Part shown: positions 1,931 through 11,425 of the stretch, in pieces
Layout of the letters: each line of letters opens with the position of its first letter
Position numbering within the stretch: the first letter of the stretch is position 1
DNA from: Alphaproteobacteria bacterium
Lineage (GTDB): Bacteria > Pseudomonadota > Alphaproteobacteria > MPNO01 > UBA830
Direction of reading: 5' to 3'
Assembly (NCBI GenBank): GCA_038131485.1
Contig: JAYPPO010000010.1
Coordinates: forward strand, 521 to 64,520
Length of the DNA stretch: 64,000 nt
Position numbers and translations under genes: made by a program
Notes under the pieces: model-generated
Seen by the model: only the letters and a program-made list of their open reading frames with translations
Database searches by the model: none
What the model was told of the DNA's origin: nothing

Positions 1931-2893
1931 ATGTACTACGACTTCGTACCCATGCCGGAACGCAAGCCGCTGAAGTGGCCCGACGGCAAACGCCTTGCCG
2001 TGTTCGTGACCTTCAATCTCGAATACTGGGACCTGACCAAGGACACCGAAGAATCCTACTACGCGGGAGGTCCCTCGATCCTGCCCGATCCCCTTCCCGG
2101 CAACGTCGCCGACATCCCGAATTACACGTGGCGCGAGTACGGCCAGCGGGTCGGCATCTGGCGCCTGTTCGACATCATGGATAAGGCCGGTGTCCCGGCT
2201 AGCTGTACGATGAACGCGAAGATGGGCATTGAACGGCCGCAGGCGATCAAGTACTGCGTCGAGCGCGGCTGGGAGCTTGTCGCGCATAACTATGTCCAGA
2301 CCGACCTTCTGACCAATTACTATTTCGATCCGGAGGGCGAGCGTCAGATCGTTCTGGAAACCATCGACGTTTACAAGAAGGTGGTCGGGAAGAAGCCCGC
2401 GGGCTGGCTGTCATCGTCACTCCGCACCAACCCGTCGACGGTCGACATCCTCGCCGAACAGGGGCTGCTCTACACTGCCGACTTCCTAAACGACGATCAG
2501 CCATACCTGATGCAGACGGACCACGGTCCCATCGTCTCGGTTCCCTACACGGTCGAGATCAACGATTTCATGATGTTCATGCGGCGCGGCAACTCCACCA
2601 GCGAGGCTTTCAACGTCATGAAAGAGCAGTTCGACACGCTCTACATGGAGGGCACCGAGAGTGGTCGGCTAATGAATCTTGGCCTGCACCCGCACGTCAT
2701 CGGCCAGCCCTTCCGCGCCCGCGCCCTCAGGGAATTCGTCGACTATGCCAAGCAGTTCCCAGACGTCTGGTGGACGACCCGGGAGGAGCTTGCGAAGTGG
2801 TATCTGAAAAACCACGAAAGCCATATTCCGCCGAAAAAGCGGCGGCGCGGCCGGACAGAAACGCCGGCCAACCAGAAACGCAGCCAAAGGTAG
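1931..2893 (+). CDS. Polysaccharide deacetylase family, PuuE/allantoinase-like
   Basis: WPDGKRLAV, NYTWREYGQRVGIWRL, DDQPY, GLHPHVIGQPFR; RBS GGAGG. Confidence 0.85.
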   Translation: MYYDFVPMPERKPLKWPDGKRLAVFVTFNLEYWDLTKDTEESYYAGGPSILPDPLPGNVADIPNYTWREYGQRVGIWRLFDIMDKAGVPASCTMNAKMGIERPQAIKYCVERGWELVAHNYVQTDLLTNYYFDPEGERQIVLETIDVYKKVVGKKPAGWLSSSLRTNPSTVDILAEQGLLYTADFLNDDQPYLMQTDHGPIVSVPYTVEINDFMMFMRRGNSTSEAFNVMKEQFDTLYMEGTESGRLMNLGLHPHVIGQPFRARALREFVDYAKQFPDVWWTTREELAKWYLKNHESHIPPKKRRRGRTETPANQKRSQR

Positions 2894-2917: not shown

Positions 2918-2953
2918 GGCCCTCTGCAGCGGTGGAGGGCCGCCTATTTTCTT
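2918..2953 (+). terminator. Putative intrinsic terminator
   Basis: GGCCCTCTGC-AGCG-GTGGAGGGCC hairpin followed by TATTTTCTT, just after the deacetylase stop. Confidence 0.55.
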
Positions 2954-2971: not shown

Positions 2972-4072
2972 ATGCGTTCGGCCATGCCGTCTAACGGATC
3001 AGTGACGAAACCCGCGGACCTGTTTAACTATTTCCTGCGCTGCACACCGACACTCATTCTCGGGGCGGCCGGTGGCTGGCTTATGGAGCAGATCCATGCA
3101 CCGCTACCGTGGTTTTTCGGATCGCTTTTCGCCGTCGCCACTGTGAACATTGCCGGCTGGCGCGTCCGGAGCCCTAAGGGCGCTCGGCAGTGCGGCCAAA
3201 TCCTGATAGGCACCACGATCGGACTGTACTTCACGCCGGCGGTGGCGGCGGTCGTCGCCGCGCATCTGCCGTGGATGGTCCTTGTGGCAGTCGTCTCGAT
3301 CGGGCTTGGCGGTCTCGGCGGCGCAATCCTGATCCGCATCGCCAGGGTCGACGGCGCCACTGCATTCTTCGGCAACGTTCCAGGCGGTATGGCGGAGATG
3401 CTGGCACTCGGCGACAGGTTCGGCGCGCGACCCGACCAGCTCACGCTCTCTCAACTCACCCGTGTAACCATCGTCATTCTGTCGATCCCGCCCGCGCTCA
3501 CCTTCTTCGGCGAGACTGGCGAAAACATTTTCGTCCCCTTCGCACGTGAGGTGGACTATCCGCTGCTCGCCTGTCTGCTAGGGGCGTCCGTTATCAGCGC
3601 GTTCGCTCTTTTCAAGGTACGCCTGCCCAACTGCTGGATGCTCGGCGCCGCCATCCTCAGCAGCCTGCTAACCATCTTCGAGATCGAGATGTCTGCAATG
3701 CCGAAGGATCTACTCAGCGTGGCGCAGGTATTGATTGGCATTGCACTCGGCGAGCGGTTTGACCGCACGTCTTTCACCAGCGCGCCGCGCGTAATCGTAG
3801 GCTCGGCGATTACGACGGTCTTAATGATGGGGCTGGCCGTTGCTCTCGCCATGTTCATTGCGGGACAGACGGAGATCGTGCCGACTGCGATGATCGCCGC
3901 GACGGCGCCGGGCGGGCTCGCCGAAATGAGCCTTACGGCCGCAGTGCTAAAGCTGGGCGTCCCGCTGGTGACCGCCTATCACGTCGTCCGGATTCTGATG
4001 ATCACTGCCTTCACCCTACCGGCGTTCTATCTTGCACGGCGCCTCATGCAACCGGCGGGACGCGCATCTTGA
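2972..4072 (+). CDS. AbrB-family (AidB regulator / putative ammonia monooxygenase family) duplicated membrane protein
   Basis: Many TM segments; two internal repeats PLPWFFG/LPNCWMLG and PGGMAEM/PGGLAEM. Start could be GTG at 3002. Confidence 0.8.
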   Translation: MRSAMPSNGSVTKPADLFNYFLRCTPTLILGAAGGWLMEQIHAPLPWFFGSLFAVATVNIAGWRVRSPKGARQCGQILIGTTIGLYFTPAVAAVVAAHLPWMVLVAVVSIGLGGLGGAILIRIARVDGATAFFGNVPGGMAEMLALGDRFGARPDQLTLSQLTRVTIVILSIPPALTFFGETGENIFVPFAREVDYPLLACLLGASVISAFALFKVRLPNCWMLGAAILSSLLTIFEIEMSAMPKDLLSVAQVLIGIALGERFDRTSFTSAPRVIVGSAITTVLMMGLAVALAMFIAGQTEIVPTAMIAATAPGGLAEMSLTAAVLKLGVPLVTAYHVVRILMITAFTLPAFYLARRLMQPAGRAS

Positions 4073-5067
4073 TCGACGCCGTCATCCTCGATGCGCTCCG
4101 TCAGATTGGCCTTCTTGCTGACGGGGAAACGCCAGCTGCCGAAGCGCTGACTGGCGGCGTTTCGTCCGATATATGGAAGGTCACGTCGGCCCACGGTACG
4201 TTCTGCATCAAGCGTGCGCTCGCGAAGCTTCGCACCGAAAAGGACTGGTTCGCGCCCGTCTCGCGCAACTCGAACGAGGCGGCCTGGATTCGCATCGCCG
4301 CCCAGGCTGTGCCGTCGGGCGTGCCTGAACTGATCGGGGAGGGCTCGGACACCGGCATGTTCGCGATGGCATATCTCGACCCGGCCGATCACCCGGTTTG
4401 GAAGTCGCTGCTGCGCGACGGTCATGTCCTACCGGGATCGGCGAAAGCGGTCGGCGATGCACTGGGCCGTATCCACGCGGCCACTGCCGGCGACGCAGCC
4501 ATAGCTGAGCGCTTCGCGACGGACGACATTTTTCACGCCATCCGGCTGGAGCCCTATCTGCTACGCACTGCAGAAGCCCATCCCGATCTTGCCGACCGGC
4601 TGCGCGACCTGGCTAGCTTGACGGCTGAAACCCGTCTCGCCCTCGTCCATGGCGACGTGAGCCCCAAGAACATCCTCATCGGTCCTGAGGGCCCCGTGTT
4701 CCTGGACGCGGAATGCGCATGGTACGGCGACCCGGCATTCGATCTCGCTTTCTGCCTGAACCACATGTTGCTGAAATGCGTCTGGCGTCCGCAATGGGCG
4801 GACCGATACCTCGCATGCTTCCATGAACTGCGAGACGCCTATCTGCACCATGTGTCGTGGGAGCCGGCCGGCACGATGGAAGCGCGAACAGCTGCCCTTC
4901 TCCCGGGCCTTCTTCTCGCACGCATCGACGGAACGTCTCCGGTAGAGTACATCACGGAAGAGAGCGACAAAGACTGCGTACGCCGCGCCGCGCGCGCCGG
5001 TCTGTGCGAGGACACGGAAAGGCTGGAGAACGTCGCGACGCTTTTCCGCCAATCGTTAGGTATATGA
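4069..5067 (+). CDS. APH/choline-kinase-fold phosphotransferase (methylthioribose kinase-like)
   Basis: LTGGVSSDIW loop, IKRALAKLR, Brenner motif HGDVSPKNIL, LDAECAWYGDPAFD; TTGA and ATGA overlaps with both neighbours. Confidence 0.82.
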   Translation: MIDAVILDALRQIGLLADGETPAAEALTGGVSSDIWKVTSAHGTFCIKRALAKLRTEKDWFAPVSRNSNEAAWIRIAAQAVPSGVPELIGEGSDTGMFAMAYLDPADHPVWKSLLRDGHVLPGSAKAVGDALGRIHAATAGDAAIAERFATDDIFHAIRLEPYLLRTAEAHPDLADRLRDLASLTAETRLALVHGDVSPKNILIGPEGPVFLDAECAWYGDPAFDLAFCLNHMLLKCVWRPQWADRYLACFHELRDAYLHHVSWEPAGTMEARTAALLPGLLLARIDGTSPVEYITEESDKDCVRRAARAGLCEDTERLENVATLFRQSLGI

Positions 5068-6329
5068 GCAACAACAACATAACGGGCATCGCCGCTCGGC
5101 GTGTCTGGGACTCCCGCGGCAGGCCGACGGTCGAGGTCGAGGCGATCCTGTCTGGCGGCGCAACAGGCCGGGCGATCGCGCCCGCCGGCGCTTCCAGGGG
5201 AGCCAACGAGGCGATCGATCTGCGGGACGGCGGCAAAGACCTCGGCGGCTTCGGCGTCGAAAAGGCGCTCGACAACATCGCCGATGAAATTGCGCCCCTT
5301 CTCGAAGGGATGGACGCGGAGGACCAAGAGGCCGTCGATCTAGCGATGATCGAGTGCGACGACACAGACGACAAATCCCGGCTCGGCGGCAATGCGATCG
5401 TCGCGGTCTCAATGGCGGTGCTCAGCGCGATGGCGACGAGCCGCAAGCTCCCCCTCTGGCGGCATCTCGCGGGAGATGCGCAGGTTCGGCTGCCGATGCC
5501 AGAGATCCAGATCTTCGGCGGCGGCGCGCATGCCGGCCGCTGGGTCGACATCCAGGATTTTATGGCCATCCCTGTGGGAGCCGAGACATTCGACGAGGCA
5601 CTCGAGATGGTCGCCGAAGTCTATCTCGCTGCCGGCCAGCTGATGCAGGACGCGGGCAAACTTGGGGGCGTTGCCGACGAAGGCGGATGGTGGCCGGCGT
5701 TCGACACCAACGAGGAAGCGCTCGACACGCTGGTCCAGGCCATCGAGAAAGCGGGCCTCCAGCCCGGCGTCGACGTTGCGATTTCGCTCGATATCGCCGC
5801 CTCGGAGTTCGGCAAGAACGGCTGCTACCGGCTTGGCCTCGAAAAACGCGAACTCGACGGCGACGGCATGATTGAACTACTTGCGGGCTGGCTCGACCGA
5901 TACCCAATCTTCTCCATCGAGGATCCCCTCGGTGAGGACGATCCGGAGAATATGAAACGCTTCACGGAGCGTTTCGGTGACGAGGTCCAGATCGTTGGCG
6001 ATGATTTTCTCGTTACCAGCGCCGAGCGCGTGGCGAATGCGGCTTACGCGGGCATCTGCAATTCGGTCCTGATCAAGCCAAATCAGGCAGGCACCGTGAC
6101 CGAGACCAAGGCCGCGCTCGACACGGCCAGGGACGCCGGCTGGGGCACCATCGTCTCTGCCCGGTCGGGCGAAACAGAGGACGTCACTATCGCGCACCTC
6201 GCCGTCGGCTGGAACGCTGGACAGCTCAAGGTCGGTTCGTTTGCCCGCTCTGAGCGGATGGCTAAATGGAACGAGGTCCTGCGCATCGAGGAAGCCATGG
6301 GCGATCGCGCCCGCCTCGCTGGAACCTGA
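5064..6329 (+). CDS. eno: Enolase paralog with altered active-site motifs
   Basis: DSRGRPTVEVE, DEGG, DIAASE, SIEDP, VGDD, LIKPNQ, RSGETED, RSERMAKWN; ATG at 5064. Confidence 0.88.
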   Translation: MSNNNITGIAARRVWDSRGRPTVEVEAILSGGATGRAIAPAGASRGANEAIDLRDGGKDLGGFGVEKALDNIADEIAPLLEGMDAEDQEAVDLAMIECDDTDDKSRLGGNAIVAVSMAVLSAMATSRKLPLWRHLAGDAQVRLPMPEIQIFGGGAHAGRWVDIQDFMAIPVGAETFDEALEMVAEVYLAAGQLMQDAGKLGGVADEGGWWPAFDTNEEALDTLVQAIEKAGLQPGVDVAISLDIAASEFGKNGCYRLGLEKRELDGDGMIELLAGWLDRYPIFSIEDPLGEDDPENMKRFTERFGDEVQIVGDDFLVTSAERVANAAYAGICNSVLIKPNQAGTVTETKAALDTARDAGWGTIVSARSGETEDVTIAHLAVGWNAGQLKVGSFARSERMAKWNEVLRIEEAMGDRARLAGT

Positions 6330-6339
6330 GGCAAAGAAC

Positions 6340-7284
6340 ATGAAGGCCGTTCTCCAGTACCGTGCGAGCCCAGGGTTCCAGAACCGCATTGTCGCTCAGG
6401 CCCCAGACTGGCTCGACGTCGTCATCGTTGACGAGGCGGAAAAGGATGCCTTCGCAACCGAAATGCGTGACGCCGACGTGCTGCTGCACGTGCTCGAACC
6501 CGTCACCGTGGCCAGCATCAAGGGCGCGCCCTCACTCGCCCTAATCCAGAAGATCGGTGTCGGTGTGAACACCATCGACCTGGAGACCGCCCGTAAGCGT
6601 GAGGTCGCCGTCTGCAACATGCCGGGCACGAACTCGCGCGCCGTCGCAGAAATGACGCTCGCGCTGATGCTCTCGGCGCTCAGGCGCGTCCCCTTCTTCG
6701 ATCGCCTCATGAGAAGAGGTGAAGGCTGGACTACGCCGCTAGAAGCCTTCGACCGGACCGGCGAGGTCGCGGGCCGGACGGTGGGCCTAATCGGCTATGG
6801 CGAGGTTGCGCGGCTGATCGCGCCCGTGCTGTCCGCAATGGGCGCGACGGTACTCTATACCGCGACGGCGCCGAAGGACGACGCCGTCGCGGACTGGCGG
6901 TCGCTCGAAGCCTTGCTGGCCGAGGCCGACATCCTCTCGCTGCACGTGCCGCTGACGCCCGATACCGAAAAGATCATCGATGCCGCTGCCATAGACTGGA
7001 TGAAATCAGACGCAATCATCGTTAATACCGCGCGCGGCGGCTTGATCGACGAGGCCGCGATGGTCAAGGCGCTCAAATCGGGAAAGTTGCGCGCCGCCGG
7101 CCTTGACGTCTTGACCGTGGAACCAGCGCCCGCCGGAAACCCGCTGTTCGAACTTGAGAATGTCGTCCTGATGCCGCACGTCGCTTGGCTGACGCCGGAA
7201 ACGCTCGACCGCAGCCTCGGGATTGCATTTGAGAACTGCCGGCGATTAAAGGACGGAGAGGAATTGCTTTACCGCGTCGCTTGA
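6340..7284 (+). CDS. D-isomer-specific 2-hydroxyacid dehydrogenase
   Basis: GLIGYGEVA Rossmann motif, LHVPLT, NTARGG, LDV...EP, PHVAW; ATG 10 nt after the enolase stop. Confidence 0.9.
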   Translation: MKAVLQYRASPGFQNRIVAQAPDWLDVVIVDEAEKDAFATEMRDADVLLHVLEPVTVASIKGAPSLALIQKIGVGVNTIDLETARKREVAVCNMPGTNSRAVAEMTLALMLSALRRVPFFDRLMRRGEGWTTPLEAFDRTGEVAGRTVGLIGYGEVARLIAPVLSAMGATVLYTATAPKDDAVADWRSLEALLAEADILSLHVPLTPDTEKIIDAAAIDWMKSDAIIVNTARGGLIDEAAMVKALKSGKLRAAGLDVLTVEPAPAGNPLFELENVVLMPHVAWLTPETLDRSLGIAFENCRRLKDGEELLYRVA

Positions 7285-7296
7285 CGCGTAAAGGGC

Positions 7297-8137
7297 CTAT
7301 TCGGGCTTGCGGAATTGCTGGATACCCCACGCCAGATAACCGGTTTCCGCGGCGTTTACCCAGTTCCCTAGCCCCTGGATCATGCGGTCGACGTATTCCT
7401 TGCTCGACAGCACGCACATTCGGTCGTAATTGCCAGTCAGCATTTCGCGGACACGGTTGTAGTGCGACCGCAGATGCGGCGACAGGATGTCGTCTGCGAC
7501 GTGCTGCATCCCTGACGTTGCCGCCAACTGCTTGTACAGCGCGAACGACCCGAGATTGTCGAGATGGATCCGCGCCAGCACGGAGCCAAGGACGTCCTCA
7601 GGGCAGTCGTCGGCCTGCATCGGATCGGTAAATACCAGCGAACCGCCCGGCTTCAGGACCCGGAACACCTCGTCCATCACGGTTTGCTTGCGGCCACTGT
7701 GCAGGATCGCATCCTGCGACCAGACGAGGTCATAGCTTCTGTCCGCTTCTGGCAGGTCTTCGAAGTTGCCGTATTTGACTTCGATGAGGTTTGCGAGCCC
7801 CTGCTCCGCATTCAGGCGCTCGTTGGTCGCGTTCTGCGTCCGCGAGATATTGAGGCAGACGACACGGCAGCCATAGGTTTTCGCGAGAAACCTCGCGGAA
7901 CCGCCGTAGCCCGCTCCGATATCGAGCACCTTAGTCTTCGCGTCGATGGGCTCGGCCGCCTTCGCCATGCGCTCGACCGTTAATCGGCTTGCCGTCCGGA
8001 TATCATCGGTCGTGTCGTAGAGCCCGATATGGATGTCCTCGCCGCCCCAGATGTTGAAATAGAAGCGGTCGGCTTCGTCGCTATCGTAATAGGTCTCCGT
8101 GATCCGGGCGACTTCTTCCGCCCGCGCCGCTCCAGAA

Positions 8138-8145
<8 letters not shown>
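7297..8145 (-). CDS. Sarcosine/dimethylglycine N-methyltransferase (SDMT)
   Basis: YYDSDEADRFY..IWGGEDIHIGLY, VLDIGAGYGG, WSQDAILH, FTDPMQAD, LAWGI; start overlaps GSMT stop. Confidence 0.88.
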
Positions 8146-8983
<838 letters not shown>

Positions 8984-9957: not shown

Positions 9958-10035
9958 TGGGGTGGCTGATGGGATTCGAACCCACGACCTCCTGGACCAC
10001 AACCAGGCGCTCTAACCAACTGAGCTACAGCCACC
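9958..10035 (-). tRNA. tRNA-His (GTG) with encoded G-1 and CCA
   Basis: Minus strand GGTGGCTGTAGCTCAGTTGGTTAGAGCGCCTGGTTGTGGTCCAGGAGGTCGTGGGTTCGAATCCCATCAGCCACCCCA; acceptor stem GTGGCTG/CAGCCAC, T-loop GTTCGAA. Confidence 0.97.
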
Positions 10036-10095: not shown

Positions 10096-11259
10096 TCAGC
10101 CATGGCCAAAATGCGCCTTCAGCCTCCGGATCGCTTCGTCGATGGTTTCAGCCTTTTTGCAGAACGAAAACCTAGCGAAATACTTGACGTCGTCGGAGGT
10201 GTAGAAGGCGCTGACCGGCACGGCCGCGACCCCCGCTTCAGTTGTCAGGTAATGGCAAAAATCGGTATCTAGGCCGTTGTAGCCCAGTGGGCGAAAATCG
10301 GTGGTGATGAAGTAGGTCCCCTGACACGGAATGACCTCGAAACCAACGTCGCTCAGGCCGTCGGCAAGGTGATCGCGCCGCGCCTGCATGTCCGAGGTCA
10401 GCGAATCGAAATAGGCGTCTTCCTTCCGCAGTCCATAGGCGACCGCAGCCTGCAGGTTGGGCGGCGTCGTGAAGGTTAGAAACTGGTGCGCTTTTGCGAT
10501 CGGCGTCAGCAAGTCGGGCGCAGCCGTAATCATCCCGATCTTCCACCCAGTAAGCGAGAAGATCTTACCGGCAGACTGGATGCGCACGGTTCGATCGCGC
10601 ATGCCAGGCAGCGTGATCATCGGCACGTGCGGCACGCCGTCGAAGGCGAGATGCTCGTAGACCTCGTCGGACACCGCAAACGCGTCGTGCTCCCGACAGA
10701 GCTTAGAAATGAACTCAAGTTCGTCGCGACTGTACACCTTGGCGCAAGGGTTCTGCGGCGTATTGATCAAGATGAGCTTGGTTTTATCCGAAAAGGCAGC
10801 TTCGAGCTCGCTGCGCGGCAGCTCCCAGCTCGGCGGCTCCAGACGCACACACTTCGCGACTCCGCCGCCGCGCTGGACGATCGGCAGATAGGAATCGTAA
10901 AGCGGCTCGATCAAGATGACTTCGTCGCCCGGCTCGATCAGGCCGAGCAACGCGGCTCCGAGGGCCTCCGTTCCACCCGACGTCACCATCGTCTCGGTCT
11001 GCCAGTCGATGTCTAGGTCGTAAAATCGCTTCGCATGCTCCGCGACCGCCTTGCGCAGCTCCGGAATGCCGTACATGGACGGATACTGATTGACCCCGTT
11101 GCGCAGATACTCGACGCCCGCCTCGACGACGTCTTTGGGGCCGTTCCCGTCCGGAAAACCCTGCCCTAGATTGATTGCGTCGTGCGCCTGCGCGAGGCGT
11201 GACATCACCTCGAAAATCGTCGTTCCAAAACTCGACAGAACCGCGTTGCCCGGTTTCAC
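10096..11259 (-). CDS. Class I/II PLP aminotransferase (YbdL-like)
   Basis: TTIFEVMS, INLGQGFPD, NTPQNP, SDEVYEH, SAGKIFSLTGWKIG; GTG start after GGAGAG. Confidence 0.9.
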   Translation of the reverse strand: MKPGNAVLSSFGTTIFEVMSRLAQAHDAINLGQGFPDGNGPKDVVEAGVEYLRNGVNQYPSMYGIPELRKAVAEHAKRFYDLDIDWQTETMVTSGGTEALGAALLGLIEPGDEVILIEPLYDSYLPIVQRGGGVAKCVRLEPPSWELPRSELEAAFSDKTKLILINTPQNPCAKVYSRDELEFISKLCREHDAFAVSDEVYEHLAFDGVPHVPMITLPGMRDRTVRIQSAGKIFSLTGWKIGMITAAPDLLTPIAKAHQFLTFTTPPNLQAAVAYGLRKEDAYFDSLTSDMQARRDHLADGLSDVGFEVIPCQGTYFITTDFRPLGYNGLDTDFCHYLTTEAGVAAVPVSAFYTSDDVKYFARFSFCKKAETIDEAIRRLKAHFGHG

Positions 11260-11425
11260 TGTTTCTCTCCCTTTGATCCGACCCCGGCCAGCGGCCTCTC
11301 TAGCACGGCACAAGCGTTTCGCGCCAGATATGGCACATAGCCTCGGGCAATCGCCGAGTATCAGTCAGCTTGACCGTGCGCCGGATCAATAGTTTCGTTT
11401 TGTCATTGGACAGAAGGGATGCATT

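Follow-up and report, generated by a model that had tools for sequence, protein, structure and literature searches.

Why should a bacterium equipped with a canonical enolase and a glycerate kinase encode a second enolase directly behind an APH-fold kinase? The question is raised by a locus in a 64,000-nucleotide stretch of alphaproteobacterial DNA (hereafter the window), where a sequence-only reading had singled out four neighbouring genes as a candidate undescribed pathway. In agreement with that reading, a literature search found no publication describing this gene set, nor any enzyme assay, mutant or expression result for a member of the module. Here we report that the kinase and the second enolase adjoin in hundreds of bacterial species, and we propose that the module probably turns a three-carbon hydroxy acid into phosphoenolpyruvate (PEP) by a route not described before.

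Results

Organization of the locus

Table 1. Features of the module locus, in window coordinates
Feature	Position	Strand	Remarks
Terminator-like hairpin and T-run	2918..2941	+	consensus scan only
AbrB-family membrane protein	2972..4072	+	366 aa
MtnK-like APH-fold kinase	4069..5067	+	332 aa, TTG start
Enolase paralogue	5064..6329	+	421 aa, ATG start
D-isomer-specific 2-hydroxyacid dehydrogenase	6340..7284	+	314 aa, ATG at 6340

The open reading frames and the sequence itself confirm the co-oriented arrangement reported earlier (Table 1): the kinase start codon overlaps the AbrB stop codon (TGA) in a TTGA (4069-4072), the enolase start codon overlaps the kinase stop codon (TGA) in an ATGA (5064-5067), and a gap of 10 nt (6330-6339) separates the enolase from the dehydrogenase, with GAGG just 5′ of the dehydrogenase ATG. 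The hairpin upstream of the AbrB gene, located by consensus scan, has a 10-pair stem with 7 GC pairs followed by TATTTTC. With this hairpin on the 5′ side and a convergent gene downstream of the dehydrogenase, the four genes look like one unit; the terminator-like element, as far as a consensus scan alone can indicate, would close the unit of the PuuE-like gene that precedes it, leaving the four-gene transcript to start separately.

The genome also contains a canonical eno (680 bits) in the order pyrG-kdsA-eno-(116 aa ORF)-pdhA, the context in which a housekeeping copy had been expected, so that the module enolase is indeed a second copy. Among the genomes of 61 relatives, this one included, canonical eno scores 640-687 bits over its full length in 56 (one truncated, at 578); the search of the other five, which are incomplete assemblies (60-86% completeness), found fragments or nothing. 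A MOFRL glycerate kinase is likewise encoded in 56 of the 61, again including this genome. Given these standard enzymes, the module is an extra.

Conservation of the kinase-enolase pair

A search for kinase homologues yielded 856 cluster representatives at E<=1e-30. Conservation of kinase and enolase as neighbours, whose absence the sequence-only reading had named as refuting, holds across phyla. Of 80 loci sampled from other species, 76 have room for an enolase gene, and all 76 place an enolase homologue no more than 3 kb from the kinase: on the same strand and within 150 nt in 65, within 1 kb in 9 more, and at 2.6-2.9 kb in 2, one of them on the opposite strand. It was not found in the remaining four, whose contigs end 2-178 nt past the kinase. 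The two genes adjoin in 29 of 30 relatives' loci, the sole miss being a 1952-bp contig, and the paralogue is present in 30 of 32 kinase-positive relatives versus 1 of 29 kinase-negative ones, there at a contig edge. Pairwise distances of the two proteins correlate at r=0.56, a value inflated by related sequences and reached by 0 of 2000 label permutations. At the loci examined, the paralogue is linked to the kinase and never found in pyrG-kdsA context. The arrangement is far beyond chance.

The other two genes follow this pair to different extents. A dehydrogenase is the neighbour in 28 of the 30 loci of relatives and in 27 of the 80 wider loci; an AbrB gene precedes the kinase in 16 and 1 of these, respectively, the 16 all within one family (f1). 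The conserved core is thus the kinase and the enolase, with the dehydrogenase as a frequent partner and the AbrB gene as a feature of the window's own family. Of the proposed four-gene set, the coupling stands, but conservation as a unit is limited to the pair.

The kinase

The kinase matches PF01636 (APH; 71 bits). It scores 42 bits against the 5-methylthioribose (MTR) kinase model TIGR01767, far below the cut-off of 275, with a good match only over residues 188-245. Its AF2 model (pLDDT 95.5) most closely resembles the MTR kinases 2pyw and 2pul (TM 0.82-0.84, 13-17% identity), and 2pyw is the sole match by sequence among solved structures (E 2e-7). In fold, the kinase stands nearest to kinases that act on metabolites (MTR kinase, PsiK) rather than to protein or aminoglycoside kinases. 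With MtnK it has the catalytic-loop and DxE metal-binding motifs in common, but it is shorter (332 versus about 400 aa) and has a different conserved gene partner. Residues K48, D196, N201, D213, E215 and Arg66/159/273/285/305 are invariant. Profile searches matched no glycerate kinase family, PF02595 and PF05161 included, bearing out the earlier placement of the kinase outside known glycerate kinase folds. We propose that this enzyme phosphorylates a D-2-hydroxy acid at O-2.

The structural and sequence neighbours of the kinase include LxmK, which with LxmY forms a lanthipeptide dehydratase. In that pair, too, a hydroxyl is activated by the APH-fold kinase before the lyase carries out a beta-elimination; however, what leaves the peptide Ser/Thr is the phosphate itself and LxmY is not an enolase, whereas the module phosphate would be expected to remain on the product.

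The enolase paralogue

Both enolase domains (PF03952, Enolase_N; PF00113, Enolase_C) are present in the paralogue, which at 493 bits exceeds the eno equivalog cut-off of TIGR01060 (300) but falls short of the canonical copy of the same genome (680); identity to the genome's own eno is 45-50%. Ser44, His156, Gln164, Glu206, Asp243, Glu286, Asp313, Lys338, Arg367, Ser368 and Lys389 are kept, covering the canonical metal (Mg), phosphate, carboxylate, base and acid positions. In contrast, about 30 positions are fixed differently in paralogues and canonical enolases, and two of these are universally conserved in the latter (yeast numbering): Glu168 is replaced by Asp (D165 in 98 of 98 paralogues, Glu in 30 of 30 canonical enolases) and His373 by Ala (A366 in 97 of 98, with one Gly; His in 30 of 30). 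In all kinase-linked enolases examined, the Gly that stands two positions ahead of the DEGG glutamate has also become Ala, and the Thr after Lys396 is Val or Ile. The replacements occur in two separate paralogue clades and in Actinobacteria. The active-site loop after His156 contains an Arg at R160 in 94 of 98 main-clade paralogues and at R159 in 68 of 98, the latter also in the second clade, and new invariant Trp residues appear (W210, W383 and others).

We take the replaced residues (Glu168, His373 and others) to adjoin the C3 hydroxyl in canonical enolase, and a plain 2-phosphoglycerate dehydratase is therefore not the obvious expectation. The two invariant active-site replacements indicate that the paralogue is specialised in some way, which may concern the C3 group of the substrate, tolerance of an inhibitor or coupling to the kinase. 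Its proposed activity is that of a lyase converting a 2-phosphoester into an enol phosphate (PEP).

The dehydrogenase and the AbrB protein

The dehydrogenase (PF02826, 181 bits; PF00389, 83 bits; best solved relative 1wwk) has the Arg/Glu/His triad motifs and Val-Leu in place of the SERA Arg-Ser motif, and is 40% identical to an SlcC-like gene in the sulfolactate cluster of Paracoccus seriniphilus. It is proposed to interconvert a 2-oxo acid and the D-2-hydroxy acid used by the kinase. At least two D-2-hydroxyacid dehydrogenase subfamilies have been recruited beside the pair.

The AbrB protein (PF05145, 246 bits; TIGR03082, duplicated, 208 bits against a cut-off of 94.7) is a candidate permease for the substrate or product of the module in this lineage. 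Its confinement to the window's own family makes it at most a local transporter choice, and the earlier suggestion of a transporter holds in that form, not as part of a conserved set.

Neighbourhoods in other genomes

The order ppc-DH-kinase occurs on two Rhizobium plasmids, and kinase-enolase-formate-THF ligase in two betaproteobacterial loci that adjoin formate dehydrogenase or a methyl-THF/corrinoid system. Sugar-acid clusters that also encode SDRs, SMP-30 lactonase, UxuA dehydratases and sugar ABC transporters enclose the order FAH-kinase-enolase; in one representative, the kinase is joined to UxuA or lies next to it, and a Burkholderia plasmid cluster with the pair contains UxuA dehydratases. 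Operons of P. seriniphilus and Roseibium read kinase-enolase-FAH-SDR(s)-sugar ABC transporter, with no dehydratase gene. LacI regulators recur near the pair, as do acid-sugar importers of the TRAP, TTT or ABC type. Most loci are without any sugar genes, and in 53 of 74 both a dehydrogenase and an FAH gene are missing near the pair. Pathways of the Route III type employ a hydrolase of the FAH family to cut a 2,4-diketo-3-deoxy acid into pyruvate and a short 2-hydroxy acid (PMC6336799). With a hexonate as starting point, the latter would be glycerate. The ppc, formate-THF ligase, FAH and sugar-acid contexts point to conversion of a C3 acid into PEP.

Genes resembling sulfopyruvate decarboxylase alpha and beta, below model cut-offs, lie directly 5′ of the kinase in five genomes of one genus, and the P. 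seriniphilus plasmid has a SuyAB-TTT-SlcC-ComC-exporter cluster about 14-22 kb from its kinase-enolase operon. Links between the module and sulfolactate are confined to this one plasmid neighbourhood and this one genus. No homologues of SuyA, ComC, a sulfate/sulfite exporter, HpcH aldolase or SLA-dehydrogenase were found in 122 loci and the window, and no Xsc over cut-off in this genome.

Discussion

The best reading of the module, as inferred from protein families and gene context, is a chain from a 2-oxo acid through a D-2-hydroxy acid and its 2-phosphoester to an enol phosphate. In its plainest version, which we put forward as plausible but tentative, the dehydrogenase would convert hydroxypyruvate into D-glycerate (or the reverse), the MtnK-like kinase would use ATP to form 2-phospho-D-glycerate, and the translationally coupled paralogue would remove the C3 hydroxyl to give PEP, with the AbrB-family protein as permease for the acid in this lineage. 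Elsewhere the pair would stand behind other feeders, such as C1/THF genes, importers of the TRAP, TTT or ABC type, and the FAH-family hydrolases that belong to oxidative, non-phosphorylative routes for sugar acids, and in some bacteria ahead of PEP carboxylase. The lower part of the serine cycle and glycerate pathway comprises the hydroxypyruvate reductase HprA, a glycerate 2-kinase (MOFRL GckA/TtuD or GlxK/GarK), enolase and PEP carboxylase. The proposed order of dehydrogenase, 2-phosphoester-making kinase and enolase-family lyase resembles it, and ppc or formate-THF ligase adjoins module genes in some genomes. The module differs in that its enolase is a separate, altered paralogue, that the standard enzymes coexist with it, and that its kinase has the APH/MtnK fold, with no relation to the three classes of glycerate kinase that PMC2063504 names.

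The plain glycerate route is challenged by the MOFRL kinase in most of the related genomes and by the two replaced enolase residues. A serious rival, if an unlikely one, has as substrate a glycerate analogue with an anionic C3 leaving group, (S)-3-sulfolactate being the best candidate and 3-O-sulfo- or 3-phospho-glycerate variants. In this scheme, sulfopyruvate and (S)-sulfolactate would be interconverted by the dehydrogenase, (2S)-2-phospho-3-sulfolactate would be the kinase product, and PEP would arise as the paralogue eliminates sulfite. ComA (phosphosulfolactate synthase, coenzyme M synthesis) links a phosphorylated 3-substituted lactate to PEP by enolase-like chemistry; the module has no homology to ComA or SuyAB, and would run the ComA reaction in reverse, on the opposite enantiomer and with a true enolase. 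Such a substrate accounts for dedicated enzymes alongside the MOFRL kinase and canonical eno, and for changes exactly beside the C3 hydroxyl together with the loop Arg. By CIP reasoning (S)-sulfolactate is arranged in space like D-glycerate; sulfosugar routes supply it, according to PMC12421959, and SlcC, the (S)-sulfolactate dehydrogenase, is described in PMC6303947 as a member of the D-2-hydroxyacid dehydrogenase family, near the SERA clade, acting like the proposed module enzyme on a 3-substituted lactate. The similarity of the window dehydrogenase to the SlcC-like gene near the P. seriniphilus pair and the decarboxylase-like genes also favour it. However, the decarboxylase link amounts to one evolutionary event, P. 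seriniphilus has SuyAB already, none of the sulfolactate genes sought was found in the 122 loci and the window and no Xsc over cut-off in this genome, Asp165 retains a negative charge beside the place that a sulfonate would take, several of the new residues are Trp, and glycerate is an equally good fit for the contexts with ppc, formate-THF ligase or sugar-acid genes.

A rather improbable reading has the pair dehydrate a longer 2,3-dihydroxy acid (tetronate, tartrate or aldonate) by way of ATP cycling. The kinase would make the 2-phosphoester, the paralogue would dehydrate it to a C3-substituted PEP, and pyruvate kinase or a phosphatase would release a 2-keto-3-deoxy acid; if true, the pair would be an iron-sulfur-free substitute for dehydratases of the IlvD/UxuA/UxaA type. 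The two replacements would reduce bulk and polarity near C3, the invariant Trp residues would suit a polyol chain, and the sugar operons without a dehydratase gene, the LacI regulators and the acid-sugar importers fit this proposal. Against it, UxuA is already present in the Burkholderia cluster and in the UxuA-kinase joined protein, ppc adjoining the kinase favours PEP itself as product, most loci have no sugar genes, and no precedent is known for a dehydration that spends and regains ATP. We regard the absence of any new pathway as very improbable; in that case the paralogue would be a spare or inhibitor-insensitive 2-phosphoglycerate enolase and the kinase its regulator as a protein kinase or an enzyme inactivating an inhibitor or antibiotic. 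APH-fold relatives do include antibiotic and protein kinases, natural phosphonate enolase inhibitors such as SF2312 exist, and the replaced residues could weaken inhibitor binding; yet the kinase folds nearest to metabolite kinases, its many invariant Arg suit a small anionic substrate, and the genes that recur beside it encode importers and catabolic enzymes rather than functions in resistance or regulation. That the kinase is an ordinary MTR kinase of methionine salvage, with the enolase adjacent by accident, is almost certainly wrong and, as far as sequence allows, refuted. MTR kinases are its best structural match, but identity is low, the TIGR01767 score is far under cut-off, true MtnK is absent from this genome, no salvage genes lie near the kinase in the loci inspected, and the partner, kept in 76 of 76 loci, is a true enolase, whereas that pathway uses RuBisCO-like or enolase-phosphatase enzymes; the earlier view that this is no plain MTR kinase is upheld.

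On the glycerate reading, the module would act as a self-contained lower trunk through which a three-carbon D-2-hydroxy acid enters central metabolism as PEP, and its kinase, if that reading is true, would represent a fourth, APH-fold kind of glycerate 2-kinase.

Organization of the gene unit

The sequence-only reading had described four co-oriented open reading frames joined by TTGA and ATGA start/stop overlaps and a 10-nt gap, an arrangement that is borne out by the sequence. Since a terminator-like hairpin followed by a T-run lies upstream of the AbrB gene and the gene 3′ of the dehydrogenase is convergent, the four genes look like one transcription unit. The AbrB-family protein carries a duplicated membrane domain scoring above the profile cut-off, and a role in transport is assumed for this family.

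Features of the gene unit and its surroundings in the window, with profile matches
Feature	Position	Strand	Profile match
PuuE-like/polysaccharide-deacetylase gene	1931-2893	+	TIGR03212 163 bits (cut-off 424)
Terminator-like hairpin and T-run	2918-2941
AbrB-family duplicated membrane protein, 366 aa	2972-4072	+	PF05145 246 bits; TIGR03082 208 bits (cut-off 94.7), two stretches
APH-fold kinase, 332 aa, TTG start	4069-5067	+	PF01636
Enolase, 421 aa	5064-6329	+	TIGR01060 493 bits (cut-off 300)
Codon of enolase Trp160	~5541-5543	+
D-isomer 2-hydroxyacid dehydrogenase, 314 aa, ATG at 6340	6340-7284	+	PF02826 and PF00389
Sarcosine/dimethylglycine N-methyltransferase match	7297-8169	-	NF041675 320 bits (under cut-off 550)
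Glycine/sarcosine N-methyltransferase match	8138-8983	-	NF051855 483 bits (cut-off 350)
tRNA gene	9961-10034	-	RF00005 71.7 bits
Aminotransferase gene	10096-11313		NF006488 623 bits (over cut-off)

The hairpin stands between the PuuE-like gene and the operon; homologues of the PuuE-like gene (cluster c2) lie directly 5′ of AbrB in 2 of the relatives' 12 wide loci, and in another three they stand a few genes further upstream. On the other side, the two adjoining methyltransferase genes resemble the pair for glycine-betaine synthesis, which is typical of salt-adapted bacteria, and occupy the spot where relatives' genomes have an FAH-family gene 3′ of the dehydrogenase. The tRNA gene separates the methyltransferase pair from the aminotransferase gene.

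A conserved kinase-enolase pair

The conserved unit is the kinase together with the enolase. The coupled four-gene operon, for which the sequence-only reading had suggested a candidate pathway from 2-oxo acid through 2-hydroxy acid and 2-phosphoester to enol phosphate, is real in the window as a gene unit, whereas its conserved core elsewhere consists of these two genes and not of all four. Of 30 loci from relatives, 29 have the enolase downstream of the kinase and 28 the start of the dehydrogenase downstream of the enolase; AbrB lies 5′ of the kinase in 16, all within the window's own family.

A pattern scan over one genome per species returned at least 599 stretches, at least 588 of them encoding a relative. 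The best 80 were kept as a wide sample that is, as a set of best matches, biased to close relatives of the window's kinase and includes at least three duplicates of genomes sampled before. Titles of these 80 name Alpha-, Beta- and Gammaproteobacteria, Acidobacteriota (Vicinamibacterales, Bryobacterales), Methylomirabilales and Dehalococcoidia, and carriers of the pair include Alpha-, Beta- and Gammaproteobacteria, Acidobacteriota, Actinomycetota, Chloroflexota and Methylomirabilales. Distances between kinase and enolase were obtained with tblastn in all 80 loci. An enolase homologue lies on the same strand at most 150 nt from the kinase in 65 loci (62 downstream, 3 upstream), within 1 kb on the same strand in 9 more and at 2.6-2.9 kb in 2, one of them on the opposite strand; in the remaining 4, where none was found, the contig ends 2-178 nt past the kinase. 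By comparison, a dehydrogenase occurs within 3 kb in 27 of the 80 and AbrB in one. Genes in these high-GC loci were predicted from codon log-odds learned from the core genes, and the key counts derive from tblastn.

Pairwise distances of kinases and enolases are correlated (r=0.56), a value reached by none of 2000 label permutations in a test that relatedness inflates. An all-against-library search yielded 856 representatives of kinase-family clusters (50% identity) at E<=1e-30. Four apparent kinase-enolase fusions among the cluster representatives (P0172, P0197, P0208 and P0222) were treated as read-through artefacts of overlapping genes. Two were inspected: the P0222 ORF crosses an Arg-rich stretch translated in the wrong frame, and in P0172 the kinase match ends at about residue 250 and the sequence resumes at the enolase Met.

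The genome's canonical eno lies elsewhere in the assembly (2.7 Mb, 24 contigs, 78% complete), in the housekeeping context that the sequence-only reading had anticipated (680 bits; order pyrG-kdsA-eno-(116-aa ORF)-pdhA). Enolase scores are bimodal across 61 related genomes, with canonical enzymes at 640-687 bits and a second class at 420-500 bits. This second class is present in 30 of the 32 kinase-positive genomes, the other two being G040, with a kinase fragment only and no paralogue, and a genome whose kinase sits on a 1952-bp contig. It occurs in one of the 29 genomes with no kinase match, where it lies right at the beginning of its contig. At locus L029 (G030:C1:1823180-1824416), in a relative whose genome is complete, the paralogue is divided between two reading frames (residues 1-330 and 330-418) and is probably decaying after a frameshift.

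A remodelled enolase active site

The paralogue has both enolase domains (PF03952, 154 bits; PF00113, 309 bits) and exceeds the TIGR01060 equivalog cut-off. We compared 30 canonical enolases of relatives with 98 that are linked to the kinase. The latter invariably keep the metal ligands D243, E286 and D313, the base K338, the acid E206 and the phosphate/carboxylate binders R367, S368, K389, H156 and S44, and they also retain the binder Q164. We take the yeast enolase residues with these roles to be Asp246, Glu295 and Asp320 (Mg), Lys345 (base), Glu211 (acid) and Arg374, Ser375, Lys396, His159 and Ser39 (phosphate/carboxylate). About 30 positions are fixed differently in the paralogues, and at each replaced place listed below the solved canonical enolase 7ckp has the canonical residue.

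Replacements in the kinase-linked paralogues (window enolase numbering; yeast numbering for Glu168, His373 and Lys396)
Canonical residue	Paralogue residue	Occurrence
Glu168 (30/30 canonical)	Asp165	98/98
His373 (30/30 canonical)	Ala366	97/98, one Gly
Gly before DEGG	Ala204	98/98
Ala after DEGGF	Trp210	98/98
Val after catalytic Lys	Pro339	98/98
Thr after Lys396	Val390	98/98
Asn in DSRGNPT	Arg20	96/98
Pro in loop after His156	Arg160	94/98; Trp in window

The window's Trp160 is the sole Trp at that active-site-loop position in the set. In contrast to canonical enolase, the paralogue lacks Glu168 and His373 while keeping both domains and the metal, base and acid residues. These two residues flank the C3 hydroxyl or water in the canonical enzyme, so that the paralogue's active site is intact around C2 but remodelled around C3.

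The same Asp/Ala replacement of Glu168 and His373 recurs in a second clade and in six plasmid copies. The second clade, the smaller of the two, has the order enolase-kinase (loci L069, L103, L104, L154 on Methylobacterium nodulans pMNOD02, and L156/L164 on Rhodococcus plasmids) and is about equally far from the main clade and from canonical eno. It shares Asp165, Ala366, Ala204 and Arg20; its residue 390 is Val or Ile, three of four members have Arg159, and many other positions are canonical-like; in L069 and L104 a GFO/IDH/MocA oxidoreductase follows the pair. An unrooted FastTree phylogeny, for which the canonical set was alphaproteobacterial only, resolves main (39), second (4) and canonical (15) sequences as three clades joined at one node.

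The kinase

Against the methylthioribose kinase profile TIGR01767 the window's kinase scores 42 bits, with its best stretch at residues 188-245, far below the cut-off of 275. By sequence it is consequently not the plain methylthioribose kinase that the sequence-only reading had named as the outcome to exclude. A whole-genome search with the same profile found no true MtnK in the window's genome (best 22.7 bits). The only solved relative detected by sequence is 2pyw (E 2e-7). A structure model (pLDDT 95.5) has as its closest folds the MTR kinases 2pyw and 2pul (TM 0.82-0.84, Foldseek E 5e-17, 13-17% identity), followed by PsiK and the lanthipeptide kinase LxmK. The kinase thus shares the fold of MtnK, whereas its sequence falls below the equivalog cut-off.

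Profile searches match the kinase to APH-type families only, which agrees with its earlier placement outside the known glycerate kinase families; unlike the classes GlxK/GarK (PF02595) and MOFRL (PF05161), with which it has no homology, it belongs to the APH fold. Across 66 family members the ATP-site residues K48, D196, N201, D213 and E215 are invariant, as are Arg 66, 159, 273, 285 and 305, and these arginines would fit an anionic small substrate. Source annotations of the family are generic (aminoglycoside phosphotransferase, fructosamine kinase, Bud32), and protein atlas clusters name it 'phosphotransferase' only.

One close homologue, the cluster representative P0236 (519 aa; 45% identity over residues 4-325), has a MobA-like nucleotidyltransferase (PF12804, NTP_transf_3) before the kinase in the same ORF, which may represent adjacent genes rather than a fusion. 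A genuine fusion would imply that this organism nucleotidylates the phosphorylated product.

The dehydrogenase and gene neighbourhoods elsewhere

The dehydrogenase has both domains of its superfamily and the Arg-Glu-His triad, and the motifs ntaRgg, vEp and mpHv are conserved with respect to 1wwk. An assignment as SerA (3-phosphoglycerate dehydrogenase) was rejected on the absence of the Arg-Ser motif of the beta3-alpha3 loop, which binds the 3-phosphate in the SERA subfamily according to PMC6303947: 'vRSkp' of 1wwk and 'vRSat' of M. tuberculosis align with 'hVLep' in the window. The Arg of the beta4-alpha4 loop is retained ('nsRava'), and the TIGR01327 score is 200 bits against a cut-off of 454. 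The protein shares 40% identity with an SlcC-like gene product and 31-32% with the dehydrogenases of 'C-terminal binding protein' type beside the kinase in Rhodococcus and Rhizobium. Different subfamilies of one superfamily have hence been recruited, which argues that a D-2-hydroxy acid/2-oxo acid step truly belongs with the pair.

Within the wide sample the pair mostly stands by itself: in 53 of 74 loci neither a dehydrogenase nor an FAH gene lies within four genes upstream or five downstream of it. Recurrent neighbours are FAH-family hydrolases, EamA, TRAP, TTT, MFS and ABC transporters, LacI regulators, GFO/IDH/MocA oxidoreductases, SMP-30 lactonases and DUF6807 proteins. The Rhodococcus plasmids (L156/L164) have the order FAH-dehydrogenase-eno-kinase-FAH. 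Cupriavidus necator (L158), whose unannotated record was examined for these genes only, has FAH-dehydrogenase-kinase with the enolase 5.8 kb away. Two Rhizobium plasmids (L155, L161) carry LysR, then ppc-dehydrogenase-kinase, with eno in an adjoining ABC-cupin-eno-VOC operon. The larger Rhizobium and Rhodococcus clusters have in common a cupin, FAH, alcohol dehydrogenase, NAD(P)H-dependent oxidoreductase, 3-hydroxybutyryl-CoA dehydrogenase and acyl-CoA dehydrogenase, with VOC and a branched-chain-type ABC transporter in Rhizobium only. The dehydrogenase-kinase cluster of these three genera looks like a catabolic island.

Elsewhere, a Burkholderia plasmid shows SDR-UxuA-GntR-UxuA-SDR-SMP-30-FAH-kinase-eno-sugar ABC-RraA, and Paracoccus seriniphilus and Roseibium aggregatum have LacI, then kinase-eno-FAH-SDR(s)-sugar ABC transporter. 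In two betaproteobacterial loci the order is kinase-eno-formate-THF ligase, one adjoining formate dehydrogenase and the other methyl-THF:corrinoid methyltransferase, RACo and MTHFR. One cluster representative, P0203, has UxuA and kinase joined or abutting, and may likewise consist of adjacent genes. A malate thiokinase beside the pair in locus L057 was rejected, the genes scoring as succinate-CoA ligase (592 bits, over cut-off) and falling below the malate-CoA ligase cut-off.

Proposed function and alternatives

We infer catalysis from protein families, conserved residues and gene neighbours. That ppc and C1/THF genes adjoin the module, and that in oxidative sugar-acid clusters the pair follows FAH hydrolases, points to PEP as the product and to a substrate that is a C3 D-2-hydroxy acid. 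We therefore tentatively read the pair as the glycerate-type chain put forward in the sequence-only reading, in which the kinase may be a new kind of glycerate 2-kinase, a proposal that we hold at somewhat less than even confidence. In Route III-type routes, as described in PMC6336799, an FAH-family hydrolase gives pyruvate plus glycolate or lactate. By analogy, such a route starting from a hexonate would have glycerate as its second product. GlxK/GarK (PF02595) is found in none of 61 relatives, and MOFRL glycerate kinase (PF05161) in 56, including the window's genome, at other places in the genome. The idea that the pair displaces a missing glycerate kinase was rejected because of this MOFRL presence, which together with the invariant C3-side replacements speaks against a plain duplicate.

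Both objections would be explained if the module acted on a glycerate analogue with another leaving group, the main alternative though an unlikely one, for which (S)-3-sulfolactate stands out. By CIP reasoning its spatial configuration is that of D-glycerate; sulfosugar routes deliver the S enantiomer (PMC12421959) and the (S)-sulfolactate dehydrogenase SlcC belongs to the superfamily of the window's dehydrogenase (PMC6303947). In P. seriniphilus a SuyAB-TTT-SlcC-ComC-exporter cluster lies ~14-22 kb from the pair, and sulfopyruvate-decarboxylase-like genes occur 5′ of the kinase in five genomes, all belonging to a single genus; yet no other sulfonate gene was found in the 122 loci searched or in the window, and no Xsc over cut-off in the window's genome. 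In one version of this alternative, which we regard as improbable at roughly one chance in several, the kinase would be a sulfolactate kinase and its partner a phosphosulfolactate sulfite-lyase that forms PEP, or the two would serve some other C3 acid whose beta-leaving group is anionic; a true enolase, re-tooled by Glu168Asp and His373Ala, would then expel sulfite instead of hydroxide. Ranked lower are an ATP-cycling dehydratase for longer acid sugars and a spare or inhibitor-insensitive enolase.

Separately, the TauE/SafE anion-exporter family, which includes sulfite/sulfonate exporters, has 14 matches over cut-off, spread over several contigs, in the window's 2.7-Mb genome, a seemingly high number; the family also matches in 13 of 14 control genomes.

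The sequence-only reading knew of no characterised pathway with this gene set, and we likewise found no description of the pair in the open-access articles searched. Queries on the enolase paralogue with the kinase, on sulfolactate kinase, on APH-type glycerate kinase and on the two annotated product names together returned nothing relevant in that literature; transcriptome and fitness supplements could hold data.

Significance

Enolase is among the most conserved enzymes known, and a large, old paralogue family with two hallmark residues replaced and an obligate kinase partner is absent from the literature searched. Annotation pipelines name the pair 'phosphopyruvate hydratase' and 'aminoglycoside phosphotransferase family protein', so that metabolic models are credited, unnoticed, with an antibiotic kinase and an additional glycolytic enolase. 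Either reading is testable directly with two soluble proteins. A glycerate-type route would establish a fourth, non-homologous class of glycerate kinase and supply the missing last step of oxidative sugar-acid pathways. Were the substrate sulfolactate or another analogue, the pair would mark a new point at which an environmentally abundant compound enters central metabolism; for sulfolactate itself, organosulfonate carbon would enter as PEP rather than pyruvate, through a module present across hundreds of marine and soil species.
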